Translations under genes and position numbers: made by a program
The notes under the pieces: model-generated
Databases searched by the model: none
The model's input: only the letters and a program-made list of their open reading frames with translations
What the model was told of the DNA's origin: nothing
From: an uncultured Bacilli bacterium
Lineage (GTDB): Bacteria; Bacillota_I; Bacilli_A; RF39; UBA660
DNA: 44,370 bases
Direction of reading: 5' to 3'
Assembly: GCA_947628745.1 (NCBI GenBank)
Contig: CANRBB010000003.1
Location: 1 to 44,370 of the forward strand
Shown: in pieces, positions 11,421-40,872 of the stretch
Layout: each line of letters begins with the position of its first letter
Numbering within the stretch: position 1 is the first letter of the stretch

Positions 11421-12149
11421 ATGAAAGATTTACACTCACATTTATTACCTGGAATTGATGATGGTTCAAAAAGTATCGAAGAAACTATTACACTTTTAAA
11501 AAAAGCATCAGAAGAGGGGATTACTGATTTAGTCTTAACTCCACATTATATCGAAATGAGTAAATATAATTGTAATAATGATGATAAATTAAGACTTCTG
11601 AAAATAGTACAAGAAGAAGCATCCAAAGAAAACATCAATATTAATTTATATTTAGGAAATGAAGTGTATTTGACAGAAAATTTTTTAGAATTATTAAAAA
11701 ATAATGAAATAATGACCATCAATAATAGTAGATACCTACTCTTAGAATTTCCTTTAGGGAACATGTTTCGTAATACCAAAGAAATTTTATATGAGTTAAT
11801 AGTATCGGGATATATCCCAATAATAGCTCATCCAGAAAGATACCGTATTTTTCAAAGACATCCAGAGCATATGGAAGAATATTTAAGGATGGGTGTGCTT
11901 TTACAAGGAAATTACAAAAGCCTACTTGGAAAGTATGGAAAAGACGCCAAGCACACGCTTAAGTATTTTCTAAAAAAAGGCTGGATTTGTTTAATTGGTA
12001 GTGATTGCCACCACGAGGAAAATTTTGAAATAAAAAAAATGAAACGCAAATTAAATTCTATTGTAAAAGATGAACAGATGATTGCCGATATTCTAGAAAA
12101 TAACTTCGTTAAAATCATCACAAATGAAGAAATAGGTATAAGAAGATAA
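11421..12149 (+). CDS. cpsB: PHP-family tyrosine phosphatase (CpsB/Wzh)
   Basis: DLHSHLLPGIDDGS, TPH, IIAHPERY, GSDCH. Confidence 0.92.
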   Translation: MKDLHSHLLPGIDDGSKSIEETITLLKKASEEGITDLVLTPHYIEMSKYNCNNDDKLRLLKIVQEEASKENININLYLGNEVYLTENFLELLKNNEIMTINNSRYLLLEFPLGNMFRNTKEILYELIVSGYIPIIAHPERYRIFQRHPEHMEEYLRMGVLLQGNYKSLLGKYGKDAKHTLKYFLKKGWICLIGSDCHHEENFEIKKMKRKLNSIVKDEQMIADILENNFVKIITNEEIGIRR

Positions 12150-12208
12150 TAAAATTCAGAATGAGTGTTTTGCATAAGAATAGCAAATATTTATATAAAA
12201 AGTAAACC

Positions 12209-12273
12209 ATCTCTGAAGTGAAGCGAATGCTTCGCTTTTTAAGCTCCTATGCTTTATAGGGTATTCAGGAGAT
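12209..12273. other. Compact three-way-junction secondary-structure element
   Basis: Outer stem ATCTCTGAA/TTCAGGAGAT encloses hairpins AAGCGAA-tgc-TTCGCTT and TCCTAT-gcttt-ATAGGG. Confidence 0.45.
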
Positions 12274-12501
12274 AGAAAGCATAAAAAAGACATACTTTAA
12301 AATAAAAATTAACATATATACATAAAAAGAAAAGTAATTTTTTTTAACACAAAATAGAAAAATTAATATATAATGTATGTTAGCGAAAAAAAGCGCTATT
12401 AGCGCTATTATTATTGAATACAGAATATAAATTCATGCATTTGTATGGATAATATGCAATATAGTGATAAAATAGTTTAATTGAAAAGTGAGGTATATTG
12501 A

Positions 12502-13374
12502 ATGAAAGAATATTTAAAGTTGATTAGAGTAAAACATTGGTTGAAGAATATATTAGTATTTTTGCCAGCCTTTTTTAGTATTAATATGCTAAATCGAAAT
12601 TATATTATTAGTTGTTTATTAGCTTTTTTTGTATTTTGTTTCTCATCATCTATCGTTTATGTATTGAATGACTTAAGTGATATAGAGAAAGATAAATTAC
12701 ATCCAATAAAAAAGAATAGACCTTTGGCGAGTGGGGCTTTATCAAAATCAGAAGCGCACTTAGTAATATTTATACTATCTGTTATAACATCAATAATAAT
12801 GTTTCTGTTTTATAAAAAGACAGAAAATATTTTTACAATTTTGATACCGTTAATTTATATAATTGTAAATATATTTTATAGTAAAATTCTTAAAAATGTC
12901 CCAATAATAGATGTAGTTATACTTGTATCAGGCTTTGTTCTTAGGGTTATGTATGGTGGAATAGTAATTGACGTATCGGTATCCAAATATCTATATTTAA
13001 TGATAATGTTTGGAGCGTTCTACTTAGGATTTGGTAAAAGACGAAACGAGATTATCAAAAATGGCGAAAAAAGTAGAAAAGTTTTACAAATTTATAATAA
13101 AGACTTTTTAGACAAAAATATGTATGTAACATTTGGCTTAGCAATAGTTTCATATACGTTATGGTGTGTTGATCCAACGACAGTAGCACACGTTGGACAT
13201 GATTATCTATTTTGGACTATTCCACTAGTTATGGTAATTTTACAATTATACAGTTTAAACATTGAGGGCAATTCACATGGCGACCCAACTGAAATTATAT
13301 TAAATGATAAATGTTTATTAGCAACTAGTGTATTATATGTATTAATAATGGTATTCCTACTATATATTATATGA
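12502..13374 (+). CDS. UbiA-family polyprenyl-phosphate phosphoribosyltransferase (DPPR-synthase-like)
   Basis: LIRVKHWLKNILVF, YVLNDLSDIEKDKLHPIKKNRPLASG, LKNVPIIDV, FGKRRNE, GDPTE; polytopic membrane protein. Confidence 0.85.
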   Translation: MKEYLKLIRVKHWLKNILVFLPAFFSINMLNRNYIISCLLAFFVFCFSSSIVYVLNDLSDIEKDKLHPIKKNRPLASGALSKSEAHLVIFILSVITSIIMFLFYKKTENIFTILIPLIYIIVNIFYSKILKNVPIIDVVILVSGFVLRVMYGGIVIDVSVSKYLYLMIMFGAFYLGFGKRRNEIIKNGEKSRKVLQIYNKDFLDKNMYVTFGLAIVSYTLWCVDPTTVAHVGHDYLFWTIPLVMVILQLYSLNIEGNSHGDPTEIILNDKCLLATSVLYVLIMVFLLYII

Positions 13375-13937
13375 TAAATGCATATGACTTTGATAAAACG
13401 ATATATGATGGAGATTCCTCAATAGACTTCTATTTATATTGTTTGAAAAAAAAACCAAGCATTGCTATATTTATTCCAATACAAATATGGGGTATGGTTT
13501 TATATTCATTAAAGATAAGGAAAAAGGAATACATGAAAGAAAAATTTTTTTCGATACTAAATAGAATTGGAAAAATAGATGAATATGTAACTGATTTTTG
13601 GAAAATAAATGATAAAAAAATAAAAAAATGGTATTTAAACCAAAAGCAAAAAACAGACGTAATTATATCTGCGTCTCCCGAGTTTTTACTTAAGCCTCTA
13701 GAAGATATATTAGAAATTGATAAAGTAATAGCAACTAAAGTAAATAAAAAAACTGGTAAATTTGAATCAAAAAACTGTCATGATTATGAGAAAATAGTAA
13801 GATACAAGCAAATATATGGTGATAAAAAAATAAAGGCATTTTATACAGACTCAGTCAAAGCTGATAGAGCTATGCTAGAATATGCAGAGGAAGGATATAT
13901 AGTTAAGAAAAATAATGTCTATAAATGGTTAAAGTAA
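13371..13937 (+). CDS. HAD-IB family phosphatase
   Basis: YDFDKTIYDGDS motif I, ISASP motif II, YTDSVKAD motif IV; overlaps upstream stop (ATGA). Confidence 0.85.
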   Translation: MINAYDFDKTIYDGDSSIDFYLYCLKKKPSIAIFIPIQIWGMVLYSLKIRKKEYMKEKFFSILNRIGKIDEYVTDFWKINDKKIKKWYLNQKQKTDVIISASPEFLLKPLEDILEIDKVIATKVNKKTGKFESKNCHDYEKIVRYKQIYGDKKIKAFYTDSVKADRAMLEYAEEGYIVKKNNVYKWLK

Positions 13938-14027
13938 TTACCTTAATGCTTTTTCTATATATAATTATTGTCAACTTGCATAATGGACAAATGATATACT
14001 CTTAATATACAGTTAGTGAGGTATCTT

Positions 14028-15188
14028 ATGAATAAAACAAAACAAAAAATAAGTAACATAATATTCTTATCATCTTTAATATTATTATGGATTATTTGTA
14101 TCATCCCCATTTTAAAAAACAGCAACAACTATAATCAAGTAAATAACAGAACGTCTTATAAAATAACAAAACCAACTTCTAAAGAATTTTTAAATAATAA
14201 TTATCAACAACAATTAGAAAATGCTATAAGTGATCAAATGCCTAAATATAATTATTTACAATTACTATACCCCGTTATGTCCAATTACTTAAACTATAAA
14301 ACTATAAAAGTTCTAAATTTAAACCATCAAAATAATTATATAAATTTAGGAAATATAAATATGTACCATGACTACTTAGTATATAATCCAATTATAAAAG
14401 ATGACCTAAAAAATTATGAAGATGATTTAAAAAAAATAAATTATATAAAGCAAAAAATAAATGCAGATATTTACTTATATTATATAAACAGTGATTATAA
14501 CATTAACTTCGAAACAAATAAAACAAAAGATATAGACAAATACTTAAAACAGAAATTAAAAATAGGTGACAACAACATAAAAACACTGACTATTAATTCC
14601 TTTGAAGATTATCAGAAGTATTTCTATAAATACGACCATCACTGGAATAATCGGGGTACTTACCAAGCATATAAAGAAATAGCCACTATGATGAAGTTAA
14701 CTGATATTTTACCAATAAAAGATGAAGTTTGTCTGCAAGATAGAACAATTCTAGGCTCAAAATCTAAGAGTATAGCTTTGAATAAATTCTTAAAAGAAGA
14801 TATTTGTATATATATTTATGATTATCCATCCTTTACTATTAAAATAAATAATGAAGAAGTAGAACAATATGGAGCTAACCTCGAAGATTTGAAAAATATG
14901 ACTGAATTATCTTATGCCACAATATATGGCAGTGACTATGAAGAAATAATATTCGAAAATAATAGTCAAAATAATTCTAAAAAATTGCTAATATACAGTA
15001 ATTCATACTCAAACTCAATAAACAAACTTCTAGCTAGTAATTATGAGTATACTTATGTAATAGATGGCAGATATAATAGTAATTTTGACATGATAAAATA
15101 TGTTAATGAAAAGAAAATAGACGATATTTTAATACTAGCCAATAATATGCTGTTTGGAGATACTATAAAGTGGGGTGATTTTCAATGA
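14028..15188 (+). CDS. DHHW / AlgX-AlgJ-like extracellular O-acyltransferase
   Basis: N-terminal anchor; YKYDHHWN motif; coupled to MBOAT gene; ATG 14028 after GAGGT. Confidence 0.75.
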   Translation: MNKTKQKISNIIFLSSLILLWIICIIPILKNSNNYNQVNNRTSYKITKPTSKEFLNNNYQQQLENAISDQMPKYNYLQLLYPVMSNYLNYKTIKVLNLNHQNNYINLGNINMYHDYLVYNPIIKDDLKNYEDDLKKINYIKQKINADIYLYYINSDYNINFETNKTKDIDKYLKQKLKIGDNNIKTLTINSFEDYQKYFYKYDHHWNNRGTYQAYKEIATMMKLTDILPIKDEVCLQDRTILGSKSKSIALNKFLKEDICIYIYDYPSFTIKINNEEVEQYGANLEDLKNMTELSYATIYGSDYEEIIFENNSQNNSKKLLIYSNSYSNSINKLLASNYEYTYVIDGRYNSNFDMIKYVNEKKIDDILILANNMLFGDTIKWGDFQ

Positions 15189-16564
15189 TTTTCAATTCCC
15201 TTACGTTTCTACTATTGTTTCTTCCTCTATGCATATTAATATACTTTATATTTAAAAATATAAAAATAAGAAATATTATCCTCTTAATATTTAGTTTAGT
15301 ATTCTACGCATGGGGAGAACCAATATATATCTTTATTATGATACTATCTATATTAGTAACGTATATATTTGGAATTTTAATATCAAAAGCAAAAAATAAA
15401 AGAATATATTTTATTATATCTATTGTTATCCTATTACTAAATCTTTTCTTTTTTAAGTACACTAATTTTTTAATAGATAACATAAATCATATATTAAATA
15501 TAAAACTAAAAAATATAGATTTACCTCTACCTATTGGTATTTCATTTTATACATTTCAAGCCTTATCATATTTAATAGATTTATATAGGGAAAAAATTAA
15601 AGTACAAAAAAATTTTATTTCACTTGCTTTATATATAAGCTTATTTCCTCAATTGATAGCGGGGCCTATTGTTCGCTATGAAACGATTCAAAAAGAAATA
15701 ACCAAAAGAAGCCATTCATTAGAAAAATTTGTTAGTGGTATGAAAAGATTTATTATCGGATTAAGTAAAAAAGTAATATTAGCTAACAGTATGGCTTTGA
15801 TAGCAGATACAATTTTTGGAAATTATGCTTATTATAAAACCATACTTATTTGGATAGCAGCTATATCTTATACCTTACAAATATATTATGACTTTAGTGG
15901 CTATTCAGATATGGCTATTGGTCTAGGTAAAATTTTCGGGTTTAACTTTTTAGAAAATTTCAATTATCCCTATATCTCAAGAAGTATCACAGATTTTTGG
16001 AGAAGATGGCATATTTCCTTATCAAGCTGGTTTAAAGACTATATTTATATACCATTAGGAGGGTCACGAGTAAATAAAATAAAGCACATTAGAAATATAT
16101 TTATAGTATGGTTTCTAACAGGATTATGGCATGGAGCAAGTTGGAATTATATTATTTGGGGGTTATATTTTGCTACACTTTTACTAATAGAAAAATATCC
16201 TCTAAAAAATATAATAAAAAAGGTCCCTAGTATCCTTCAACATATCATTACTTTATTTTTAATCATAATCGGATGGGTAATATTTAGGACAGAAAATCTA
16301 AATACTTTACTAAATGTTATCACTCAAATGTTTCTCTATAAAAAAAGTGATATAATGCTATTTATCACCAATAATGCTAATTTAATTATCAATTTCTATC
16401 TATTACTACCAGCTATTATTTTCTGCATACCATTAAAAAAGAAAAAAATAAAACGCTTAGGTGTACAAATAATGGTAGACTTTACGTACTTGCTTATTCT
16501 AATAATAAATATAATATTTATTATAGGAAATACCTATAATCCATTTATTTATTTCAGATTTTGA
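15185..16564 (+). CDS. MBOAT family O-acyltransferase (AlgI-like)
   Basis: LPIGISFYTFQ, FPQLIAGPIVRY, DFSGYSDMAIG, FWRRWHISL, GLWHGA, YNPFIYFRF. Confidence 0.92.
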   Translation: MIFNSLTFLLLFLPLCILIYFIFKNIKIRNIILLIFSLVFYAWGEPIYIFIMILSILVTYIFGILISKAKNKRIYFIISIVILLLNLFFFKYTNFLIDNINHILNIKLKNIDLPLPIGISFYTFQALSYLIDLYREKIKVQKNFISLALYISLFPQLIAGPIVRYETIQKEITKRSHSLEKFVSGMKRFIIGLSKKVILANSMALIADTIFGNYAYYKTILIWIAAISYTLQIYYDFSGYSDMAIGLGKIFGFNFLENFNYPYISRSITDFWRRWHISLSSWFKDYIYIPLGGSRVNKIKHIRNIFIVWFLTGLWHGASWNYIIWGLYFATLLLIEKYPLKNIIKKVPSILQHIITLFLIIIGWVIFRTENLNTLLNVITQMFLYKKSDIMLFITNNANLIINFYLLLPAIIFCIPLKKKKIKRLGVQIMVDFTYLLILIINIIFIIGNTYNPFIYFRF

Positions 16565-16625
16565 CAAAAATAGATTTATAATGTAACATACTAAACATAA
16601 AGTATAAAGGAAGGACAAATTACAT

Positions 16626-18065
16626 ATGGATAATGATTTACACCCAAAAACAAAAAAAATATTGAAGAAAAACTTAATCATAAATATAATTCATTTAATA
16701 GGCCTAGTATTATATGTACTACTATTTATAAGTATTATAAAACTAAATCTATTACCCGATAAATATTTAGTAATGTCAGGGTTAGGACTACTAATTATAG
16801 AAATAGTCTTATTTATTCTTATAAATATTAAAAATAAATTTATAAAGATATTAGGAATGATTATAATTATCATTGGCATAATATTAAGCTCAGTAGGTAT
16901 TTACTATATAAAGACAACCAATAAATTTTTAGATCAATCATTCTCCAAAAAAGTAACTACCACTACTGCCTATTACTTAATAACTAAAAGTGGTAATAAA
17001 TATAAAGAAGAAGACATTACAGGAGATGTATACTACTATAATAACTTTGAATTAAAAGATGTTAAGAAATATCTTACAAAATTTAATATCAATTATGTTG
17101 AAAGTGATAGTATGGTACAATTATTGAAAGATGTTAAAAGTGGCAGTAAAAAATTTATGTTAATTGATAAAACTAATTATAATTTAGCTTTTGATTTAGA
17201 TAATGAGTTATCAAGTAAAGATTATGAAATAGTATATAAATTTGACACTAAGAAAGTCGCACAAAAAGAAGATAAAAACACTAAGAATAAATTTACACTA
17301 CTAATAGTAGGTAATGACTTCGCTGGATATAATGATTTAAACTTATTAGTTACAGTTAACTTAGATAAAAATAAAGCTTTGGTTACTACTATTCCTAGGG
17401 GATATTATATTCCAGTAGAAGGTAAAGGTGGTAGAAAAGATACTTTAAGTTTTATGGCACCCTATGGTATAGATACAAGCGTAAAATCTATTGCCAATTA
17501 TTTTAAGATAAATATTGATTACTATTTAAAAATAAACACTCATAGCTTAGTAGGATTAGTAGATGAAATAGGAGGTATAACCTATTGCTCAGATAAAGCA
17601 TATTATACAACTCATTCTTTAGTATTAGATACATATGAAGATACTAAAGGAAAATTCTATGTAAAAAAAGGATGCCAACAGTTAAATGGAATACAAACAC
17701 TTACTGTGGCAAGAGAAAGAAAAGCTTTTTATGATGGAGATAGAACTAGGCAAAAAAATTGTGTCAAAATTATGCAAGCCATATTGGAAAAAATGAAAAA
17801 TACTAATACTTTAACTAATTATAATAATATTTTAACTTCACTTTCTGATTTATATGAAACAGATATACCAAAAGAAGAAGTAAGCTTAATAATAAAAAAG
17901 ATACTTGAAAATAGTGTTAGTATAACAATTGAGACACAGTCAGTAGATGGTGATGAAACCAAAGATTATGTTCATTTAACAGATTTCTTAGACTACGTTA
18001 TAGTTCCACGTGAAGATACAGTGTTAAATGCAACAGCTAATATAAATACACTGTTAAACGATTAA
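16626..18065 (+). CDS. Second LCP family protein (divergent active-site motifs)
   Basis: Three TM segments; TTIPRGYY, VARERK..GDRTRQ; lacks the SRSD motif of the first copy. Confidence 0.8.
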   Translation: MDNDLHPKTKKILKKNLIINIIHLIGLVLYVLLFISIIKLNLLPDKYLVMSGLGLLIIEIVLFILINIKNKFIKILGMIIIIIGIILSSVGIYYIKTTNKFLDQSFSKKVTTTTAYYLITKSGNKYKEEDITGDVYYYNNFELKDVKKYLTKFNINYVESDSMVQLLKDVKSGSKKFMLIDKTNYNLAFDLDNELSSKDYEIVYKFDTKKVAQKEDKNTKNKFTLLIVGNDFAGYNDLNLLVTVNLDKNKALVTTIPRGYYIPVEGKGGRKDTLSFMAPYGIDTSVKSIANYFKINIDYYLKINTHSLVGLVDEIGGITYCSDKAYYTTHSLVLDTYEDTKGKFYVKKGCQQLNGIQTLTVARERKAFYDGDRTRQKNCVKIMQAILEKMKNTNTLTNYNNILTSLSDLYETDIPKEEVSLIIKKILENSVSITIETQSVDGDETKDYVHLTDFLDYVIVPREDTVLNATANINTLLND

Positions 18066-18667
18066 CTATCAAATTAAAATAAAGATAAAAGTGTTTAATT
18101 AAACTAGGGAGTGTGCAAGTATTAAATCTAAAGGGAATGACTAGCACTTCCTTTTATTTTATTCTGAACACCAACTTGTCTGCTATAATTTTAGTGATAC
18201 CATGTAGTATATTATAATAATGATAAAATAACTTTACAAAAACATTTATACAAGTGCAATTTACAATTATTTTATATTATGGTAGTAAAGAAGACAGAAG
18301 ATGAATACTTTAAAAAATATATTTAGTAAATTATATATAATAAGCTATCTATATGAATCTAACTTTACTGTAAGGCAAAACATAATTATTATAATCTATA
18401 AAATGACATTTTTTTTATCAAAACCTTATTAAAATATAAACATGGTGAAATAATGTGAAGAATATTGTTAGATATGAAACAGAAAATAATAAATCAGATA
18501 GATTAGAATATATTATTTTTAAAAAACAAAATTTCCTGTTAGGCTTTCTTTTTACAACTAATTTTATACTTCCCAAAAAATCTATTAGATGTACTATTGT
18601 CGATTTATCTGATATAATAGTATCAAATATTCAAAATTATTACAGTTTTTTTTGGAGGAGGTATATA

Positions 18668-19807
18668 ATGTCTAGTTTTCTACAAGAAGTAACAAAAGAG
18701 GAAAAGGAAGAATTTTCAAATGATGATTTGTTTAATATTAATTCTTGGGGTGCAGATTTATCATTTAGAGAATTAATTTCAATGTATGATGAAAATGATT
18801 TAATTAAGCCAAATTTACAAAGGAAATATGTATGGACGATAGATGAAGCTAGTAGATTGATTGATTCTATCTTACTTGGATTACCAATACCTAGCATTTT
18901 TTTGGCAAAAAAAGAAGAAAAACGATTAATTATTGATGGATATCAAAGAATAAAGACTGTTTATGATTTCGTTAATGGAACATTTTCCAAGAATAATAGA
19001 ATTTTTAAGTTATCAAATTCTAAAATTATAAATGAGAGATGGAGAGGAAAAAGTTTTCTAGAGTTGACAGAAGATGAGCAAAGACGAATAAAAAACACTA
19101 CAATTCATGCCATAATATTTGAACAAAAAAAGCCAAATAATGACTCTGGGATGTATCAAATATTTGAAAGAATCAATACTTCTGGTAGAACTTTATGTGC
19201 TCAAGAAATTAGAAATTGTATTTATCAAGGAAAATATAATGAACTATTAATGGAGTTAAATAAAAATTTGACATGGAGAAAAATCTTAAAGTGCGAAGAA
19301 GACCCTAGAATGGCAGATGTTGAAAATATATTAAGATATTTTGCTATAAAAAACTTAGCTAAAACAGAAGAATTTTCAAAAAATCAAATTAACCTAAAAA
19401 AATATTTAAACGACAATATGGCTTTAAAATGTAATCTATCTGATGATGAGTATAATCAATATAAATTGGATTTTATAAATACGATTGAAAAAGTTTACGA
19501 TTGTTTAGGTGAAACAGCATTTAATAATATTTCTGAAAAAAGAGATGAACAAGGTAATTGGATATATAATAGTCAATTTGTAAAGAGATTTCATCCAACT
19601 ATTTATGAAGCTGTTATGATTTCCTTTAGTTTTGCATTGAAGAACAACTTTAATTTTGATAATATGAAAGAAAAACAATTGGAATTATTAAATGATATAA
19701 AGTTTAGAGAATCAGCCACAATTAGAACTACTAATTTGGAGAATATAAAAAAGAGAGTTGAATTAGCTACAATGCATTTCTTTGGGGAAAAGTATGAATG
19801 GAAATAA
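18668..19807 (+). CDS. DUF262 (GmrS/ParB-Srx-like) domain protein
   Basis: PNLQRKYVW, LIDSILLGLPIP, IIDGYQR, IFERINTSG; start moved to ATG 18668 after GGAGGAGG; TG-n-TATAAT at 18610-18618. Confidence 0.88.
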   Translation: MSSFLQEVTKEEKEEFSNDDLFNINSWGADLSFRELISMYDENDLIKPNLQRKYVWTIDEASRLIDSILLGLPIPSIFLAKKEEKRLIIDGYQRIKTVYDFVNGTFSKNNRIFKLSNSKIINERWRGKSFLELTEDEQRRIKNTTIHAIIFEQKKPNNDSGMYQIFERINTSGRTLCAQEIRNCIYQGKYNELLMELNKNLTWRKILKCEEDPRMADVENILRYFAIKNLAKTEEFSKNQINLKKYLNDNMALKCNLSDDEYNQYKLDFINTIEKVYDCLGETAFNNISEKRDEQGNWIYNSQFVKRFHPTIYEAVMISFSFALKNNFNFDNMKEKQLELLNDIKFRESATIRTTNLENIKKRVELATMHFFGEKYEWK

Positions 19808-20273
19808 TAAAAATATTATAGATGACTGCAACAATGATTTGGATAAAATAAGGCAGTTTATAAATAATGACCCGTTAAATTCATTATGCCCATATTTAAT
19901 ATCATATTGTGTTGTAAGAAGTTGTGGATGTTTAGAAGTATGCATAAAAAATTTATTATTTGATTATTTATCTTCGGGGGCTAGACAGGAAACTATCAAT
20001 TATTTAGAAAAACAAATAGTTGATAGTTCGTGGAATCCATCTTGTGGTAATATCCAAAAGATATTAGAACAAGTAAACCCCAATTGGTCTAGAAGATTTC
20101 AAGACTTGACATTTGGTATTAGTGAAAAAGGTGATTTAAAATCATTAGTTAATTTAAGAAATGATTTTGCACATGGACGACAAATCACATCTACTATTGC
20201 TGATATCATTTCTTATTTTCAGGGTGGTTGTAAAATTCTTAATATATTGGAACAAATTATTTTAAATAAATAG
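19794..20273 (+). CDS. HEPN-domain protein (RiboL-PSP/MAE_28990-like putative RNase)
   Basis: LRNDFAHG (Rx4H) motif; N-terminal helix with conserved E (GCLEVCIK); 14-nt overlap with the DUF262 gene. Confidence 0.82.
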   Translation: MNGNNKNIIDDCNNDLDKIRQFINNDPLNSLCPYLISYCVVRSCGCLEVCIKNLLFDYLSSGARQETINYLEKQIVDSSWNPSCGNIQKILEQVNPNWSRRFQDLTFGISEKGDLKSLVNLRNDFAHGRQITSTIADIISYFQGGCKILNILEQIILNK

Positions 20274-20374
20274 TTACCTATATGACGTTAAAAGTTTAGT
20301 AAATGATAATCAAATGTCATCTGAAAAAACTTACGAATAATTTAAAATTTTGATAAGAATAATTTTAATTTTAC

Positions 20375-20415
20375 ATAACTCTATTTAGTTTTAACAGCTA
20401 AATAGAGTTATTTTT
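20375..20415 (+). terminator. Intrinsic terminator closing the DUF262-HEPN cassette
   Basis: Perfect 14-bp stem ATAACTCTATTTAG / CTAAATAGAGTTAT followed by TTTT. Confidence 0.75.
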
Positions 20416-20602
20416 GATACAATTCATTCTTAAAAATATTATTAGGGCTAGATCCTAAAATTTGCTAACAAAAGTTTTTCCATTGCTATTATGCTCGACA
20501 AACCACCATAGTACAGGTAAAAGAATAAATATGCTGATAATTTATTCATATAATAAAAAACTGCACATTCTGGATATAACAAATTGAACTGTACATTGTC
20601 GT

Positions 20603-20649
20603 AAATTGTAATTAAAAATTGTAATTAAAAATTGTAATTAAAAATTGTA
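20603..20649 (+). repeat. 13-bp tandem repeat (AAATTGTAATTAA x3 plus 8-bp partial copy)
   Basis: Exact copies start at 20603, 20616 and 20629; partial copy at 20642. Confidence 0.9.
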
Positions 20650-20676
20650 GACAAATATATGAAAGTGTGGTACAAT
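20648..20676 (+). promoter_or_regulatory. Promoter of the glycosyltransferase operon
   Basis: TAGACA (20648-20653), 17-bp spacer, TG-n-TACAAT (20671-20676); a second TG-n-TATAAT at 20774-20782. Confidence 0.65.
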
Positions 20677-20836
20677 ATGTACAATTTTATGTGCGACATA
20701 GTTTAACCAAATAAACTAGCAAAATAATAAATAGATGATTATATAAAATATAGTTTTTCTAATAAAAAAAGTATGTTATAATAGAAAAGTCTAAGCTAGT
20801 TGTTCAAATAAATAAAAATATGGGGAAGGGGTAGCA

Positions 20837-21505
20837 ATGAATAACGAATTAGAAATAGTGAGTGGTGAAACAGTTAATATGAAAGAGAGCATATATAATG
20901 TATTCAAAAGATTTATTGATATAATATGTGCTGTTATAGGGTGCCTATTATTGGTTCCTATTTCTTTACTTATAAAAGTATCTTATTTAATCAATAAAGA
21001 TTTTGATTCAATTTTTTTTACACAAGAAAGGATTGGCAAAAATGGTCAGCTCTTTAAGTTTTATAAATTTCGAACCATGGTGCCTAATGCGGATGAGATT
21101 TTGTATAAAACTTTAGAGATTGATAAAGTAGCAGCAGCCGAATATAGCAAAAATAAAAAACTAAAACATGATCCAAGAATTACTAAAGTAGGGAAAATAC
21201 TTAGAAAAACATCGATAGACGAATTACCACAATTAATTAATATTCTTAAAGGAGAAATGTCATTAATAGGAAATAGGCCTTATCTTCCACGAGAAAAAAA
21301 AGATATGGGAGAATATTATAATGATATAATTAAGACAAAACCAGGACTTACTGGATACTGGCAAGTAAATGGTAGAAGTTCTAAGACTTTTGAGGAAAGA
21401 TTGAAATTAGAAAGTTATTATTCTTTACATAAGAGTTTTAAGTTGGATGTAAAAATATTTTTAAAGACATTTAAGGTGGTACTTTTTTGCAAAGATGCTG
21501 GATAG
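20837..21505 (+). CDS. Priming undecaprenyl-phosphate sugar phosphotransferase (Bac_transf)
   Basis: KRFIDI, FYKFRTM, DPRITKVG..LRKTSIDELPQLINILKGEMS, KPGLTGYWQVNGR. Confidence 0.92.
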   Translation: MNNELEIVSGETVNMKESIYNVFKRFIDIICAVIGCLLLVPISLLIKVSYLINKDFDSIFFTQERIGKNGQLFKFYKFRTMVPNADEILYKTLEIDKVAAAEYSKNKKLKHDPRITKVGKILRKTSIDELPQLINILKGEMSLIGNRPYLPREKKDMGEYYNDIIKTKPGLTGYWQVNGRSSKTFEERLKLESYYSLHKSFKLDVKIFLKTFKVVLFCKDAG

Positions 21506-21552
21506 TTCAACATCTATACATATAACATAGATAGTTAGTGAGGTGTGTTTCT

Positions 21553-22674
21553 GTGAGAATAGCTATGATTGGTCATAAACGGATTCCATCTAGAGAAGGT
21601 GGAGTAGAGATAGTAGTTGAAGAACTATCAACAAGAATGGTATCCTTAGGACATGAAGTAACCTGTTACAATAGAAGTGGTAAACATGTTCTTAATAAAG
21701 ATGAAAAAATTAAAAATCTAGAAGAGTACAAAGGAGTAAAACTAAAAAAAGTACTTACAATAGATAAAAAAGGTTTAGCAGCTATGACATCATCATTCTT
21801 TGGAACATTAAAAATACTATTCTCTAAAGCAGAAGTAGTTCATTATCATGCAGAAGGACCTTGCGCTATGATCCCTATAATTAAATTTCTATCAAGAAAA
21901 AAAGTAGTAGCAACAATTCATGGGCTTGATTGGCAAAGAGCAAAATGGAAAAATGGCTTTGCTTCTAAATATATAAAATTTGGTGAAAAGATGGCTGCCA
22001 AATACGCAGATGAAATCATTGTTTTAAGCGAAAATGTAAAAGAATACTTCAGAAGGACGTATAATCGCGATACTCATTTTATACCTAATGGAGTTAACAA
22101 GCCAGAGATTATTAAATCAAAAATTATAAAAAAGAAATATTCATTAGACAAAGATGACTACTTCTTATTTTTAGGTAGAATGGTTCCAGAAAAAGGGATT
22201 CACTATTTAATAGAAGCATATAAAAACATTTTAACAGAAAAGAAATTAGTGATAGCTGGTGGAGCTAGTGACACTGATTCTTATTATGAAGAATTAAAAG
22301 AAATGGCAAAAGATAATGAAAATATTATCTTTACAGGATTTGTTCAAGGAAAAGAACTAGAAGAGTTATATAGTAATGCGTATGTCTATGTGTTACCAAG
22401 TGATCTTGAAGGAATGCCATTATCATTATTAGAAGCTATGAGTTATGGAAATTGTTGCCTAACTTCAGATATAGATGAATGTTCAGAAGTAATAGAAAAC
22501 AAAGGAATCACTTTTAGAAAATCAGATATAAAAGATTTAATGGAAAAATTGCAAAATTTGTCAGATGATAGTAAGAAAGTAGCAAAATACCAAAAGAATG
22601 CCCAAGTATTTATATTAAAAAAATATAATTGGGATGAAGTAGCTAAAAAAACTCTAAAGTTATATAGTAAGTAG
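21553..22674 (+). CDS. Glycosyltransferase family 4
   Basis: EGGVE, FLGRMVPEKG, EGMPLSLLEAM (EX7E); GTG 21553 after GAGGTG. Confidence 0.9.
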   Translation: MRIAMIGHKRIPSREGGVEIVVEELSTRMVSLGHEVTCYNRSGKHVLNKDEKIKNLEEYKGVKLKKVLTIDKKGLAAMTSSFFGTLKILFSKAEVVHYHAEGPCAMIPIIKFLSRKKVVATIHGLDWQRAKWKNGFASKYIKFGEKMAAKYADEIIVLSENVKEYFRRTYNRDTHFIPNGVNKPEIIKSKIIKKKYSLDKDDYFLFLGRMVPEKGIHYLIEAYKNILTEKKLVIAGGASDTDSYYEELKEMAKDNENIIFTGFVQGKELEELYSNAYVYVLPSDLEGMPLSLLEAMSYGNCCLTSDIDECSEVIENKGITFRKSDIKDLMEKLQNLSDDSKKVAKYQKNAQVFILKKYNWDEVAKKTLKLYSK

Positions 22675-22681
22675 GTGAAAT

Positions 22682-23697
22682 ATGAAAAAAGCAAGATATG
22701 AATCATTAAATGGACTAAGAACTATTGCTTGTATCGGTATAGTTCTTATGCACATTCGCTCTAATATTTATTATAAATTGGGAAATGATATAGTTAATAA
22801 TATAATTCAAGGATTTACAGATTTTGTTTATTTGTTCATGATTTTGTCGGCTTTTGGAATGTGCTGTGGCTATTACAATAAAGTAAAAAACAATGAGATG
22901 GATTTAGAGGTATTTTATCAAAGAAGATTTCAAAAAGTATTACCTTTCTTTGCTTTACTATTAATTATTAATGTGATTTATGAACATACTAGTTCTTCAT
23001 TAATAGAAGCCTTCTCTGAATTTACACTAATGTTTGGATTTATTCAAAAAGATATAAAAGTTTTGGGAGTAGCATGGTTTCTAGGTATAATATTTATATT
23101 TTATTTCATATTTCCATATTTTGTATACTTATTTTCTAATAAAAAACGAGCATGGTCTACAACACTAATAGCAATTGCCATGAATTTAGTTGGTGCATTT
23201 TATTTTCATATTGATAGGACAAACTTTTTTTATAGTTTCCTATATTTTTGCGTAGGAGGTCTAATATACCTATATAAGGATGATTTAATAAAACTTGTGT
23301 CTAAACACAGAATTATAACAATTTTACTAGTTTTTTTATCAATATTTATGTATTACGGTTTAGGCAATTTAAAAACAATACTGTTTATAAGAGTCATACC
23401 ACTATGTGTTTTGCTAATAGCATATGCTATTACGTTTAATTCAAAGATGTTGAACAATAATTTTACCCAAATAATAGGTGGGGGGGGGTTAGTATGGATA
23501 TTTATTTAAGCCATATGCTAGTGTTTAGAGTCGCTCAAAAACTTAACCTAGAACACATTTTCAAAAATGATTATTTATCGTACTTTACTATATCTATCAT
23601 AGTTTTAGTAGGAGCTTTTATCTTTTCAAAAAGTTTTCAGGTAATATTTAATAAAATAAAAAGGAGTATATATCATGAAAATACTATTAGTAAATAA
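22682..23697 (+). pseudogene. Acyltransferase_3 (OafA-like) O-acyltransferase frameshifted at a G9 tract (candidate phase-OFF allele)
   Basis: LNGLRTIA..H, FMILSAF and VAWFL in 22682-23509; SMDIYLSH motif continues in another frame (23494-23697); G run at 23480-23488. Confidence 0.85.
23480..23488 (+). repeat. Homopolymeric G9 tract
   Basis: ggt-GGGGGGGGG-ttagtatg; the only long G run I noticed in the window. Confidence 0.95.
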
Positions 23698-24892
23698 ATT
23701 CCATTGGAATAAAGGTGGATCAGAAAAATACTATTTTGAATTAGGACAACTACTAAAAGAACATGGACATGAAGTAGCATATTTTTCAATGGAAGATGAA
23801 AAGAATATAAAAACTGGAGACAAAGAATATTTTGTTCCCAAGTTTGATTTAAATGCTAGTTCAAAATTAAAAGCACTAGATGTAATCTATAACAAAGAAA
23901 ACGAAAAAATAATGGAAAAGGCATTAGATGAATTTAAGCCTGATATTGTTCATTTGAATAACTTCCAAAGACAATTATCAGCTTCAATTATAAAGCCATG
24001 TACAAAAAGAAAAATTCCCATAGTATTTACAGCTCATGATGTACAAGCAATTTGTCCAGCAATTACTATGATGGATAATGATAATAATGTGTGTGAATTA
24101 TGTATGCATGGAAAGTACATGAATTGTATAAAGAAATCATGTAATAAAGGGTCTAAATTAAAAAGTATTCTAGGTGCTATAGAGGGATATTATTATCGAA
24201 GAAATAAAATATATACAGATAAGATTGACTATATAATTACACCATCTGAATTTTATAGAACCAAATTTATTGAAGATGGCATAGATAAATCTAAAGTAGA
24301 AGCAATACATAATTCAATAGATGTTTCAAACTACGATATAAAAACGCAAGATGATGGATATGCTCTATATTTTGGTAGATTATCAAAAGAAAAAGGAATA
24401 CTAAACTTAATAGAAGCCTTCTCTAAATGTGGCAATAACAGTATGTTGTATATAGCAGGGGATGGGCCCGAAAAAGAAAATATAGAAAAAATAATAAAAG
24501 AGAAAAAATTAAATAAAAGAATTAAATTATTAGGTTTCCTTAATAAAAAAGAAATGACAGAAATTACAAGAAAATGTAAGTTTGTCGTAGTACCAAGCAT
24601 CTGGTATGAAAACTGTCCATATTCAGTCCTAGAAACATTAGCTATAGGGAAACCAGTAATTGGTTCTAATATTGGTGGAATACCAGAATTAGTAAATCAT
24701 AAAGAAAATGGATATATATATAATACAATAGATGAATTAACAGAATATATGAACAAACTTTTTAATAATAAAGAAAAAGTCAAAGAGTTTAGTAAAAACT
24801 CTAAAGAGTTGGCAATTAGAAATTATTCAAGAGATGAATATTATAAAAAAATAGAAAGCATTTATCAAAAGTTATTAAGGAAGTGTAAATAA
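23675..24892 (+). CDS. Glycosyltransferase family 4 with Cys-rich insert
   Basis: KGGSEKY, HDVQAICP..CELC...C, YFGRLSKEKG, ENCPYSVLE. Confidence 0.88.
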   Translation: MKILLVNKFHWNKGGSEKYYFELGQLLKEHGHEVAYFSMEDEKNIKTGDKEYFVPKFDLNASSKLKALDVIYNKENEKIMEKALDEFKPDIVHLNNFQRQLSASIIKPCTKRKIPIVFTAHDVQAICPAITMMDNDNNVCELCMHGKYMNCIKKSCNKGSKLKSILGAIEGYYYRRNKIYTDKIDYIITPSEFYRTKFIEDGIDKSKVEAIHNSIDVSNYDIKTQDDGYALYFGRLSKEKGILNLIEAFSKCGNNSMLYIAGDGPEKENIEKIIKEKKLNKRIKLLGFLNKKEMTEITRKCKFVVVPSIWYENCPYSVLETLAIGKPVIGSNIGGIPELVNHKENGYIYNTIDELTEYMNKLFNNKEKVKEFSKNSKELAIRNYSRDEYYKKIESIYQKLLRKCK

Positions 24893-24893
24893 A

Positions 24894-26072
24894 ATGAAAG
24901 AGAAGAAATTAAACGGAACAGTAATAGTTACATATAGATGCAATGCAAGATGTACCATGTGTAATAGATATAAGTGTCCTTCTAAACCAGAAGAAGAATT
25001 ATCTATTGAAACTATTAAAAAACTACCTAAAATGTATTTTACAAATATAACTGGTGGAGAACCATTTATTAGAGAAGATTTACAAGATATAGTTGAAGAA
25101 TTATATAAAAAAAGCGATAGAATAGTTATTTCAACTAATGGGTTCTTTACTGATAGAATTATAGCTATGGCAAAAAGATTTCCTAACATTGGTATTAGAA
25201 TTTCTATTGAAGGTTTGGAACAGACCAATAATGAAATTAGAGGATTAAAAGACGGGTACAATAGAGGTTATACAACGTTAAAAAAACTAAAAGAAATGGG
25301 TATGAAAGATGTTGGCTTTGGTATGACCGTCCAAGATAAAAATGCCCCTGATTTAGTTCCTCTATATAACATATCAAATGAGATGAATATGGAATTCGCG
25401 ACTGCCTCACTTCATAATAGTTTTTACTTTGTTGAAGCCAAGAATATAATTCATGATAGACCAATGGTTGCCAAACATTTTGAAGATCTTGTAAATGAAT
25501 TATTAAATTCTAATTCACCTAAAAAATGGTTTAGAGCATATTTCAATCATGGATTAATTAATTACATATATGGTCAAAAAAGATTATTACCATGTGATAT
25601 GGCATTCGATACTTTCTTTATAGATCCATATGGAGATGTAATGCCATGTAATGGAACCAAAGATAAAGAAGTAATGGGTAACTTAAATGAATGTAAAACT
25701 TGGGATGAGTTATGGAATTCTAAGCAAGCAGAGGCGGTAAGAAGTAAAGTTAGACACTGCGACAGGCAATGTTGGATGATAGGTTCCGTTTCGCCAGCCA
25801 TGCATAAATATATTTGGAAACCAGCTTGGTGGGTATTTCGACATAAATTCTTAAGATTCTTTAAAAAGAAAAAATATTCAATGTATGAAAACAAAATTGT
25901 TAGAGACTTAAGAGATGGAAAAGTAACTAAAGAAGAACTTGATAAATGCTCAACATGTGATATGAATTGCATTATAAATGACGGCTTATCAAAAGCTTCT
26001 AAAGAGCAATTGAAAAATAAAACCGGTGAAGAAATAGTAGATGCAGATATAGCAAAACAAATGACAAAATAA
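24894..26072 (+). CDS. Radical SAM protein with SPASM/twitch-type domain
   Basis: CNARCTMC (CxxxCxxC), TGGEPF, PCDM..IDPYGDVMPC..MGNL..CDRQC; extra CSTCDMNC near the C-terminus. Confidence 0.92.
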   Translation: MKEKKLNGTVIVTYRCNARCTMCNRYKCPSKPEEELSIETIKKLPKMYFTNITGGEPFIREDLQDIVEELYKKSDRIVISTNGFFTDRIIAMAKRFPNIGIRISIEGLEQTNNEIRGLKDGYNRGYTTLKKLKEMGMKDVGFGMTVQDKNAPDLVPLYNISNEMNMEFATASLHNSFYFVEAKNIIHDRPMVAKHFEDLVNELLNSNSPKKWFRAYFNHGLINYIYGQKRLLPCDMAFDTFFIDPYGDVMPCNGTKDKEVMGNLNECKTWDELWNSKQAEAVRSKVRHCDRQCWMIGSVSPAMHKYIWKPAWWVFRHKFLRFFKKKKYSMYENKIVRDLRDGKVTKEELDKCSTCDMNCIINDGLSKASKEQLKNKTGEEIVDADIAKQMTK

Positions 26073-39747: not shown

Positions 39748-40872
39748 ATGAGTAGTTATGAACAAAAATTAAAATTAATAGTATTAAAAAGTGCTTTAGA
39801 ATTAGGTGATAAAATAGATAGTCACCTAGGAAAGTTATACGATACAAGTGAAACCTTTATTGTTCCTTCGCGTGAAACATGGTTTAATGATGGTCACGGT
39901 AAGGTTGAATTAATGGACTCTATTCGTGATAAGGATGTTTATATTTTAACTGATATAGGTAATTATGCAATGGAGTATGAAATGCATGGTTTTATCAATC
40001 ATACCTCACCTAATGACTTGGCAGCTCAATTAAAAGACACAATTGGTGCCTGTAAATGTCATACAGATAGATTATCAATCATCATGCCACTACTATATGC
40101 TGGAAGACAACATAGAAGAATTGGTCGAGAAGCTTTAACCTGTGCCACTTTTCTCCACGAATTAGATAGAGATTCCAGAGTTAATCGTTTAATAACCTTT
40201 GACGCACATGATGAAGGAGTCCAACAAGCTCTATTCCAAACAGAATTTGATAATTTTTTTGCTACTAATGTTATTCTTGAACAATTTATCAACAATACAG
40301 ATATTGAAACTTTAAAAAATATCGTCTTTGTTGCCCCAGACTTTGGTGCTACTGGACGTATGAATTTTTACCTAAACTCATTTAATAGTGAATTCATCAC
40401 TAAAGATGCAGGAAGTTTCTACAAAAGAAGAGACTATAACACTATAATTGATGGTAAAAATCCTATTATAGAACATTCCTATTCAGGAAATGAAAATATC
40501 AAAGGAACAACTGCTATCGTAGTAGATGACATGATAGCATCAGGTGGCTCCATGTTTGATGTTATTGATGAATTGAAGAAAAAAAAAGTAGAACATATTT
40601 ACTTAATAAGCACCTTTTCCTTATTCACTAAGGGTATTGATAAATTTAGAGAATATTACGACAAAAAGATGTTTGATGGGATTTACACAACTAATTTAAG
40701 TTATATTGATGAACAATATAAAAAAGAGGAATGGTTAAACGTTGTAGATTGTTCTGAATATATAGCCAAAATAATATATAATTTAAATCATAGTATGAGT
40801 ATTACAGAACTATTAAGAGACAAGAGTTATCCTTCAAAAATACTTGCTAAAAAATTTAATCAGAATAAATAA
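39748..40872 (+). CDS. prs: Ribose-phosphate pyrophosphokinase (long type)
   Basis: MPLLYAGRQHRR, ITFDAH, VAPDFGA, VVDDMIASGGS PRPP-binding motif. Confidence 0.9.
   Translation: MSSYEQKLKLIVLKSALELGDKIDSHLGKLYDTSETFIVPSRETWFNDGHGKVELMDSIRDKDVYILTDIGNYAMEYEMHGFINHTSPNDLAAQLKDTIGACKCHTDRLSIIMPLLYAGRQHRRIGREALTCATFLHELDRDSRVNRLITFDAHDEGVQQALFQTEFDNFFATNVILEQFINNTDIETLKNIVFVAPDFGATGRMNFYLNSFNSEFITKDAGSFYKRRDYNTIIDGKNPIIEHSYSGNENIKGTTAIVVDDMIASGGSMFDVIDELKKKKVEHIYLISTFSLFTKGIDKFREYYDKKMFDGIYTTNLSYIDEQYKKEEWLNVVDCSEYIAKIIYNLNHSMSITELLRDKSYPSKILAKKFNQNK

Follow-up and report, generated by a model that had tools for sequence, protein, structure and literature searches.

What is a pair of short, co-oriented genes doing in the middle of a capsule-type polysaccharide locus, where it splits the regulatory genes from the glycosyltransferase operon? 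The pair lies in a stretch of 44,370 nucleotides (nt) from an uncultured Bacilli bacterium (RF39; UBA660; assembly GCA_947628745.1, contig CANRBB010000003.1, positions 1 to 44,370), which is referred to here as the window; all coordinates are positions in this window, and the cassette is on the + strand. The first gene, A, encodes a DUF262 protein and the second, B, a HEPN protein. A first-pass annotation of the DNA had proposed that the two genes form an anti-phage system. It is very likely, in our view, that the pair belongs to the PD-T4-2 kind of anti-phage module, with a DUF262 sensor and a HEPN ribonuclease (RNase) effector, present here as a lone, horizontally acquired insert. We favor this reading because of the domains and motifs of the two proteins, their strict pairing across genomes, the occurrence of relatives in defense islands, the shared architecture with PD-T4-2, and the sporadic distribution of the family.

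The only Pfam domain in protein A is GmrSD_N/DUF262 (PF03235, E = 4.3e-27, residues 35–186). As had been annotated, there is no HNH at its C-terminus: Pfam gave no DUF1524/HNH match to A even at E <= 1, nor did it find a minimal nucleotidyltransferase (MNT) domain, and a search of NCBIfam returned nothing for either A or B. The characteristic motifs of A are LQRKYVW, DGYQR and FERIN. In an alignment of 76 A sequences, for which 5 of the 80 loci described below were dropped due to in-match stops or a frameshift, the invariant residues are Q51, R52 and W56 (QRxxxW), D90, G91, Q93 and R94 (DGxQR), and F166, E167, R168, I169 and N170 (FxxxN). The DGYQR sequence, which the first-pass annotation took as a possible mark of a distinct subtype, is the consensus of the whole A family and fits the general DGxQR motif. 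Two PADLOC profiles match A strongly: NsnA of the Menshen system (2.5e-64, residues 23–366, profile 43–374 of 385), and PD-T4-2_A (PDLC04027; 7.1e-48, 161.5 bits, residues 23–289, profile 30–296 of 363). All 76 members of the A family match both profiles, with best values of 2.8e-78 and 7.3e-58, respectively. A strong match to a described system therefore exists for A, an outcome that, by the terms of the first-pass annotation, would take away the novelty of the cassette but not its function. The closest solved relative of A by sequence is BrxU (7p9k), with an E of 2e-5 over residues 27–90 only, and no other was found; a Foldseek search of the Protein Data Bank (PDB) with the full-length model of A gave nothing at E <= 0.001, the DUF262 part of the model being poor (mean predicted local distance difference test, pLDDT, of 63.5).

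Protein B is matched by the Pfam family HEPN_RiboL-PSP (PF18735) at 1.3e-16 and 61.5 bits, against a cut-off of 28.4, and more weakly by HEPN_MAE_28990 and then HEPN_Swt1. Its Rx4H motif is R122-NDFA-H127, and R122, H127 and G128 are invariant in an alignment of 77 B sequences, from which L048 (a 430-aa fused form), L073, L075 and L084 were dropped. With its Rx4H site intact, as the first-pass annotation had noted, B is predicted to act as an RNase of the HEPN RiboL-PSP type. The only PADLOC profile reached by B is PD-T4-2_B, and weakly so (E = 0.01, 13.9 bits); among its relatives, 62 of 77 match this profile at E <= 1e-3, the best at 2.8e-11. Run over 1.84 billion proteins, a B profile matched 1982 cluster representatives at E <= 1e-3, of which 1021 also passed E <= 1e-10. 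The best hit in a profile search of the PDB had an E of 0.014, which is not meaningful, and no solved structure is within sequence reach of B. In one Bacillaceae locus (L048:7082-8374) the HEPN partner is an open reading frame (ORF) of 430 aa, made of the HEPN part and about 270 extra residues, and P0158 (422 aa), from the library of representative proteins, looks similar; these may be a fused variant of B.

The two genes are strictly paired. At E <= 1e-3, a word-based search brought up 2735 relatives of A, and the protein searches include relatives that are 87–88% identical. A genome scan, covering one genome per species, returned 80 loci with 45–72% identity to A, which span Bacillota, Bacteroidota, Proteobacteria, Verrucomicrobia, Actinomycetes, the candidate phyla radiation (CPR), cyanobacteria and archaea. 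Using a HEPN profile built from B and its 18 first matches, a B homologue was detected directly 3' of A in every one of the 80 loci, with E values from 1e-85 to 3e-13. A scan of metagenomes, which gave no relative closer than 63%, found B following A in 15 of 17 loci; one of the two misses is a contig ending 93 nt past A, and the other is a partial, 37%-identity match from outside the A family. The phage collection held only distant DUF262 proteins, with less than 30% identity, in 29 records. In one Clostridia metagenome-assembled genome (L040:6001-7261) the A homologue is broken, with a frameshift and 9 stops past residue 347, and the HEPN ORF downstream is intact.

The company kept by these relatives points in the same direction. 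Fifteen of the 80 loci were hand-picked for full flanks and taxonomic spread, and their 120 neighboring ORFs were compared with PADLOC at E <= 1e-12. Defense genes were found within 6 kb of the pair in 12 of the 15 neighborhoods. In L015, from Lachnospiraceae, the pair has BrxC, PglX and PglZ on both sides. A type I restriction-modification system stands directly upstream in L039, while L050 carries Lamassu and a type I restriction endonuclease, L067 Bunzi, L037 Thoeris-type TIR proteins, L011 Tiamat, L023 a type IV enzyme, and L048 a DUF1156 methylase, a PLD-helicase and NERD-UvrD; methylases are found in L013 and L017, and candidate systems in L006 and L010. No PADLOC match at E <= 1e-12 was present within 6 kb in L025, L030 and L043. 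The first-pass annotation had made its proposal depend on relatives being near defense genes, and in this hand-picked set they mostly are, in one case inside a BREX operon. There (L015:4830-11506) the A–B pair is embedded between PglX and PglZ, beside a small PDC-M13B/M10A-like gene.

Of the described systems, PD-T4-2 is the one whose architecture is shared. In Tables S1/S2 of Vassallo 2022, PD-T4-2 of E. coli ECOR65 is entered as 'DUF262, HEPN', with two ORFs in 1540 bp, and the top HHpred matches given there are PF03235 for A and PF18735, followed by MAE_28990 and then Swt1, for B. The domain pairing that the earlier annotation had given for PD-T4-2 is the correct one. According to the same report, PD-T4-2 protects E. 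coli from T4, and its deletion in the native ECOR65 raised T4 plaquing (Vassallo 2022); a review also lists DUF262 and PF18735 under PD-T4-2 (PMC10952713). An 'operon with ParB' was already entered for the RiboL-PSP HEPN proteins, distantly related to AbiF/AbiD, in Table 1 of Anantharaman 2013. As in PD-T4-2, the cassette has two co-oriented genes of very similar extent (1606 bp here, counted from the internal start of A), a DUF262 protein A without a nuclease domain, and a small HEPN protein B with the same order of best Pfam families. Unlike PD-T4-2, the lineage in the window adds an N-terminal beta-plus-helix domain with a nested internal start, which is described below. A search for PD-T4-2_B at E <= 1e-5 returned no member of that family from 401 genomes of the Haemophilus order (around G061) or from 14 control genomes.

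The best match of A, and one that runs over the full length, is to NsnA of Menshen NsnABC (Millman 2022; Li et al. NAR 2025), which combines a ParB-DUF262 domain with a ParBDB-type C-terminal domain. The likeness may go further, since 'type II' NsnA also has an extra N-terminal domain, and the sheet-then-helix predicted for A resembles its PS-BH class, by topology only. The cassette differs from Menshen in having neither a gene for the NsnB ABC ATPase nor a third gene for NsnC, the inactive-PIN effector; the partner is a HEPN protein instead, and HEPN is not mentioned in the Menshen paper (Li et al. NAR 2025). GmrSD, BrxU and SspE share with A the DUF262 NTPase carrying QRxxxW, DGxQR and FxxxN, followed by a helical middle domain, but each of them carries a DUF1524 His-Me nuclease at the C-terminus of the same polypeptide, whereas A has none and the effector is a separate RNase. 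For B, the family assignment and the Rx4-6H motif are common to AbiD/AbiF and the RiboL-PSP HEPN toxins; unlike the AbiD/AbiF proteins, B is a bare 159-aa HEPN domain without a fused sensor and depends on a neighboring ParB-like protein. Taken together, the pair has the PD-T4-2 architecture with a sensor nearer to NsnA, and probably represents a sister clade.

A working mechanism can be outlined for such a module. DUF262 domains are described as binding and hydrolyzing nucleoside triphosphates (NTPs), and the helical domain behind DUF262 as binding DNA; in SspE and GmrSD, DUF262 is reported to couple the recognition of modified DNA to the activation of the attached nuclease (PMC10952713; Li et al. 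NAR 2025). HEPN domains with Rx4-6H are classed as RNases in Anantharaman 2013. In the proposed module, A would be a ParB/Srx-fold DUF262 nucleotide-binding protein with a helical DNA-binding domain of the Menshen NsnA C-terminal type, and B would be made from the same transcript by coupled translation. A could then scan or bind DNA through its DNA-binding parts and the added N-terminal domain, and sense some feature of the invading phage DNA, with NTP binding and hydrolysis acting as the switch. Once triggered, A would release or activate B, which would cut RNA, stop translation and keep the phage from growing, perhaps at the expense of the cell. The trigger, the A–B contact, the RNA target and the survival of the cell are all inferred; a prediction of the A + B complex, with alignments A3 and A2, scored 0.00 and gives no evidence either way.

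The layout of the cassette is summarized in the table. The extended -10, the ribosome-binding site, the 379-aa DUF262 ORF, the 14-nt overlap by which B starts inside A and the 159-aa HEPN ORF had all been annotated before, and every one of them is present in the sequence.

Table. Features of the A–B cassette in the window
Feature	Position	Strand	Basis or remark
Long-form start of A: Shine-Dalgarno-like GGTGA 18444–18448, 6-nt spacer, GTG 18455	18444..18457	+	First start codon past the in-frame TGA
N-terminal extension of A, 71 codons; predicted four beta strands then a helix, conserved R-Y at the end	18455..18667	+	Open frame, relatives, AlphaFold2 (AF2)
Extended -10 TGATATAAT, perfect TGnTATAAT	18610..18618	+	50 nt 5' of ATG 18668; function inferred
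Shine-Dalgarno GGAGGAGG of the internal start	18654..18661	+	6 nt ahead of ATG 18668
Gene A core, 379 aa: ParB-like DUF262 NTPase and NsnA-type C-terminal helical (ParBDB-like) domain, no HNH	18668..19807	+	Pfam, PADLOC
Gene B, 159 aa, ATG 19794: predicted RNase, HEPN RiboL-PSP type	19794..20273	+	Pfam PF18735
Intrinsic terminator: 16-bp stem, 5-nt loop, T run	20375..20416	+	Hairpin 20375–20411, then TTTTT

The terminator hairpin and its T run are likewise there, with a stem of 16 pairs and not the 14 first counted; the terminator search found 1 against 0.4 expected, and the fold has an energy of -18.8 kcal/mol (z-score -4.85). The flanking gaps of about 0.5–0.6 kb also hold, at 602 nt from the end of the LCP gene (18065) to ATG 18668 and 563 nt from B to the start of the Bac_transf gene (20837), except that the upstream gap shrinks to 389 nt if A starts at GTG 18455. 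Promoter-like hexamer pairs are no more frequent than chance predicts for such AT-rich DNA (23 in 18000–20900, with 24.9 expected), so that a putative promoter ahead of ATG 18668 is proposed from the extended -10 kept in relatives, not from the hexamer-pair scan. No RNA family was matched by Rfam over 17900–21000. A second perfect TGnTATAAT, TGCTATAAT, occurs at 18181–18189, 266 nt 5' of GTG 18455, and is a possible promoter element for the long form, bearing in mind that AT-rich DNA yields many such sites.

It is at the N-terminus of A that the earlier gene model falls short, as a protein of 379 aa overlooks a conserved extension. The A frame stays open for 71 codons 5' of ATG 18668, up to GTG 18455. 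There is no stop in the A frame across these 213 nt, compared with 3–9 in each of the five other frames, and only 0.05% of shuffles are equally stop-free (P = 0.0005). In relatives the extension can be aligned at the protein level; it shows a pattern resembling [IL]RC[TF]I..LSDII and closes with R-Y. Since the invariant Arg is encoded by CGA in L015, its conservation is not an echo of the ribosome-binding site. Such an extension is carried by 16 further genome loci, gene callers give about 450 aa for most of the close relatives of A, and a Shine-Dalgarno-like GAGGT, GGTGA or GGAGG stands ahead of the long-form start in nearly all extension-bearing relatives. AF2 predicts four beta strands followed by a helix with a pLDDT of 70–80 over residues 1–50, both in the whole-protein model and in a model of the domain alone, where one model out of five reached confidence (mean pLDDT 68, against 46–53 for the rest). 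A fold search with the extension (VIA-align, 48,161 chains) gave a best Z of 3.2, which is not meaningful, and the ESM Atlas had no usable match to residues 1–71. A long form of A, of 450 aa and with a conserved small beta-plus-helix domain, is likely from this evidence.

Because the A frame continues to GTG 18455, the extended -10 and the ribosome-binding site that had been taken as the cassette's own, while both present, lie inside the probable long-form coding sequence; the letters of the extended -10 in the window are in fact codons of the 'SDII' motif. The internal start is kept too. A Shine-Dalgarno of at least 5/6, 3–10 nt ahead of the equivalent Met, is found in 16 of 17 extension-bearing loci, compared with 5 of the 181 remaining in-frame ATGs in these genes, a count for which the internal start was chosen as the best Shine-Dalgarno within a 15-codon window and in which some loci are close kin. 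In 8 of these 17 loci a perfect TGnTATAAT stands 37–76 nt ahead of the equivalent Met, and the same holds for 3 of the 9 extension-free loci that were examined. A may thus be a 450-aa gene with a nested promoter and ribosome-binding site that yield a second product of 379 aa.

This leads to a more speculative proposal, which we regard as possible but rather doubtful. A would have two outputs, a 450-aa form with an undescribed beta-plus-helix sensor, and a sensorless 379-aa form made from the nested extended -10, Shine-Dalgarno and ATG; the ratio of the two would set the threshold at which the HEPN RNase is triggered, and the design would be common to a Bacillota clade of PD-T4-2-like systems. 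There is a precedent of sorts in McrB, a defense gene with an in-frame internal start, whose short form lacks the N-terminal DNA-recognition domain; this McrB-S modulates McrBC. A is like McrB in the in-frame internal start, but the protein families are unrelated, and the two products of A are read from sequence signals only.

The surroundings of the cassette are a separate question. Pfam searches of the 37 ORFs of the window revealed a capsule-type polysaccharide locus downstream of yebC-ruvA-ruvB-queA, in the order LCP, Wzz, CpsD-like kinase, CpsB, UbiA, HAD, an unknown gene, MBOAT, a second LCP, A–B, Bac_transf, glycosyltransferases and flippase. Between cpsB and Bac_transf is a block of 8.7 kb (12150–20836) that encodes the UbiA prenyltransferase, the HAD hydrolase, the unknown protein of 390 aa, MBOAT, the second LCP and, last of all, the A–B pair. 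In G003, a genome of the same genus, the order is yebC-ruvA-ruvB-queA-x-Wzz-CpsD-CpsB-Bac_transf, with the last two only 58 nt apart (L097), and the 8.7-kb block is therefore extra in the window; in G004 and G002 the kinase also adjoins Bac_transf. A comparison with related strains had been suggested earlier, and it found the capsule locus without the pair in same-genus genomes, and A in none of 36 same-family genomes (4 of them of the same genus, most 88–98% complete). Other genomes of the class gave weak DUF262 matches only, in 4 of 24. The A–B pair is most likely a lone, horizontally acquired insert in a lineage-specific part of the capsule locus.

The first-pass annotation had gone a step further, with a cassette that travels with a swappable capsule locus and links receptor variation to intracellular immunity. 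When the window proteins were searched against the 80 genome and 17 metagenome loci, no capsule genes were found beside the pair, save for one MBOAT homologue (51% identity) in L008. Placement in a capsule locus is particular to the source genome, and capsule-linked immunity is not supported as a general rule: since the pair occurs elsewhere without capsule genes, and A is in 0 of 36 same-family genomes, the idea rests on one genome. The GC content of the cassette (0.24–0.26) is like that of its flanks (0.21–0.30), and no convincing direct or inverted repeats that could be insertion scars were found around it. The same arrangement does exist elsewhere, as three runs from a second study contain, at low depth, identical short pieces of cassette plus flank, with contigs over 12000–24000; no trustworthy joint that skips the cassette was found in those runs, the sides being shorter than 31 letters or the part between unknown. 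A title-level literature search on defense systems inside capsule loci, covering 12 of 348 titles, brought up nothing on point, which is no claim of absence from print.

A few other features of the locus are worth pointing out. At 20603–20676 are three tandem 13-nt units (AAATTGTAATTAA...) that end in a promoter-like TAGACA-17-TG-TACAAT, about 160 nt 5' of the initiating sugar transferase gene, and these may serve the glycosyltransferase operon as an operator or regulatory array. That operon includes a radical SAM-SPASM enzyme (24894–26072) with a weak PADLOC match to pVip (1.3e-10), which probably reflects the shared radical-SAM fold only. The UbiA and HAD phosphatase genes (12502–13937), together with a PRPP-synthetase-like gene (39748–40872), hint at a phosphoribosyl-derived sugar of the arabinofuranose or ribofuranose type, going by domain names only. 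The source genome (1.18 Mb in 102 contigs, 93% completeness) is small, yet it gives more than 30 kb to the polysaccharide locus.

How well, then, does the anti-phage reading stand? Several points weigh against it. The function of this family is predicted from sequence. The PD-T4-2_A match to A ends at residue 289 and is weaker than the NsnA match, as in a sister clade rather than a clear orthologue, and B itself reaches only E = 0.01 (13.9 bits) on PD-T4-2_B. There are no other defense genes among the 34 other ORFs of the 44-kb window. The 15 neighborhoods were of our own choosing, without a background control, and PADLOC includes generic methylase and helicase models. In spite of these points, the PADLOC matches to A, the PD-T4-2 pairing and the relatives in defense islands speak for an anti-phage sensor–effector pair as the probable identity of the cassette, as first proposed.

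Among the other explanations, the one that fares best is a toxin–antitoxin-like addiction module, in which A restrains the HEPN toxin B, and the pair stabilizes the lineage-specific part of the capsule locus and is not mainly anti-phage. The two genes overlap, with the putative neutralizer first; the pair is a lone module without defense neighbors in the window, and sits inside the very block that G003 lacks between cpsB and the gene of the initiating transferase; and HEPN domains are listed as common toxins of toxin–antitoxin systems in Anantharaman 2013. However, A, with its 379–450 aa, its invariant NTPase motifs and its DNA-binding domain, exceeds what a simple antitoxin would require, A is not the MNT-type nucleotidyltransferase of the HEPN-MNT type II systems, and the relatives are in defense islands in 12 of 15 cases, even within a BREX operon. 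We consider addiction unlikely as the main role of the pair, although addiction and abortive-infection defense are compatible with each other. The chances are slimmer still that A alone is a type IV-like, modification-dependent DNA-targeting protein, such as a ParB-like nuclease or nickase, with B as an accessory or back-up RNase. The DUF262 proteins GmrSD, BrxU and SspE are described as acting on modified DNA (PMC10952713), ParB-like domains are listed among the DNase domains in Anantharaman 2013, and BrxU is the closest solved relative of A, if only over residues 27–90; but the DUF1524/His-Me nuclease domain, which is the cutting part of all three proteins, is missing from A, and B is favored as the effector by the strict pairing of A with a HEPN protein whose Rx4H is intact (80 of 80). 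That the pair regulates capsule expression, for example through RNase processing of the cps transcript, is highly improbable, for it draws on position only (between the regulatory genes and the glycosyltransferase operon, with its own terminator and then a separate promoter-like site and the 13-nt repeats ahead of the transferase gene), whereas the 97 other loci have no capsule genes beside the pair, save the one MBOAT neighbor, and same-genus genomes have the capsule locus without the pair.

With the cassette very likely to be an anti-phage module, a gut bacterium with a genome of only 1.18 Mb is seen to carry a defense pair of the PD-T4-2 type. The DUF262–HEPN pair emerges as one strictly coupled unit across bacterial phyla and some archaea, whose sensor bridges PD-T4-2 and the NsnA of Menshen. 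Being compact (1.6–1.8 kb), with its own upstream region and terminator, it would be a convenient model for the control of an RNase by a ParB-type NTPase. In other respects this is a fairly ordinary defense system, and it is the nested second start within an added sensor domain that offers a testable idea about how such a system may be regulated.

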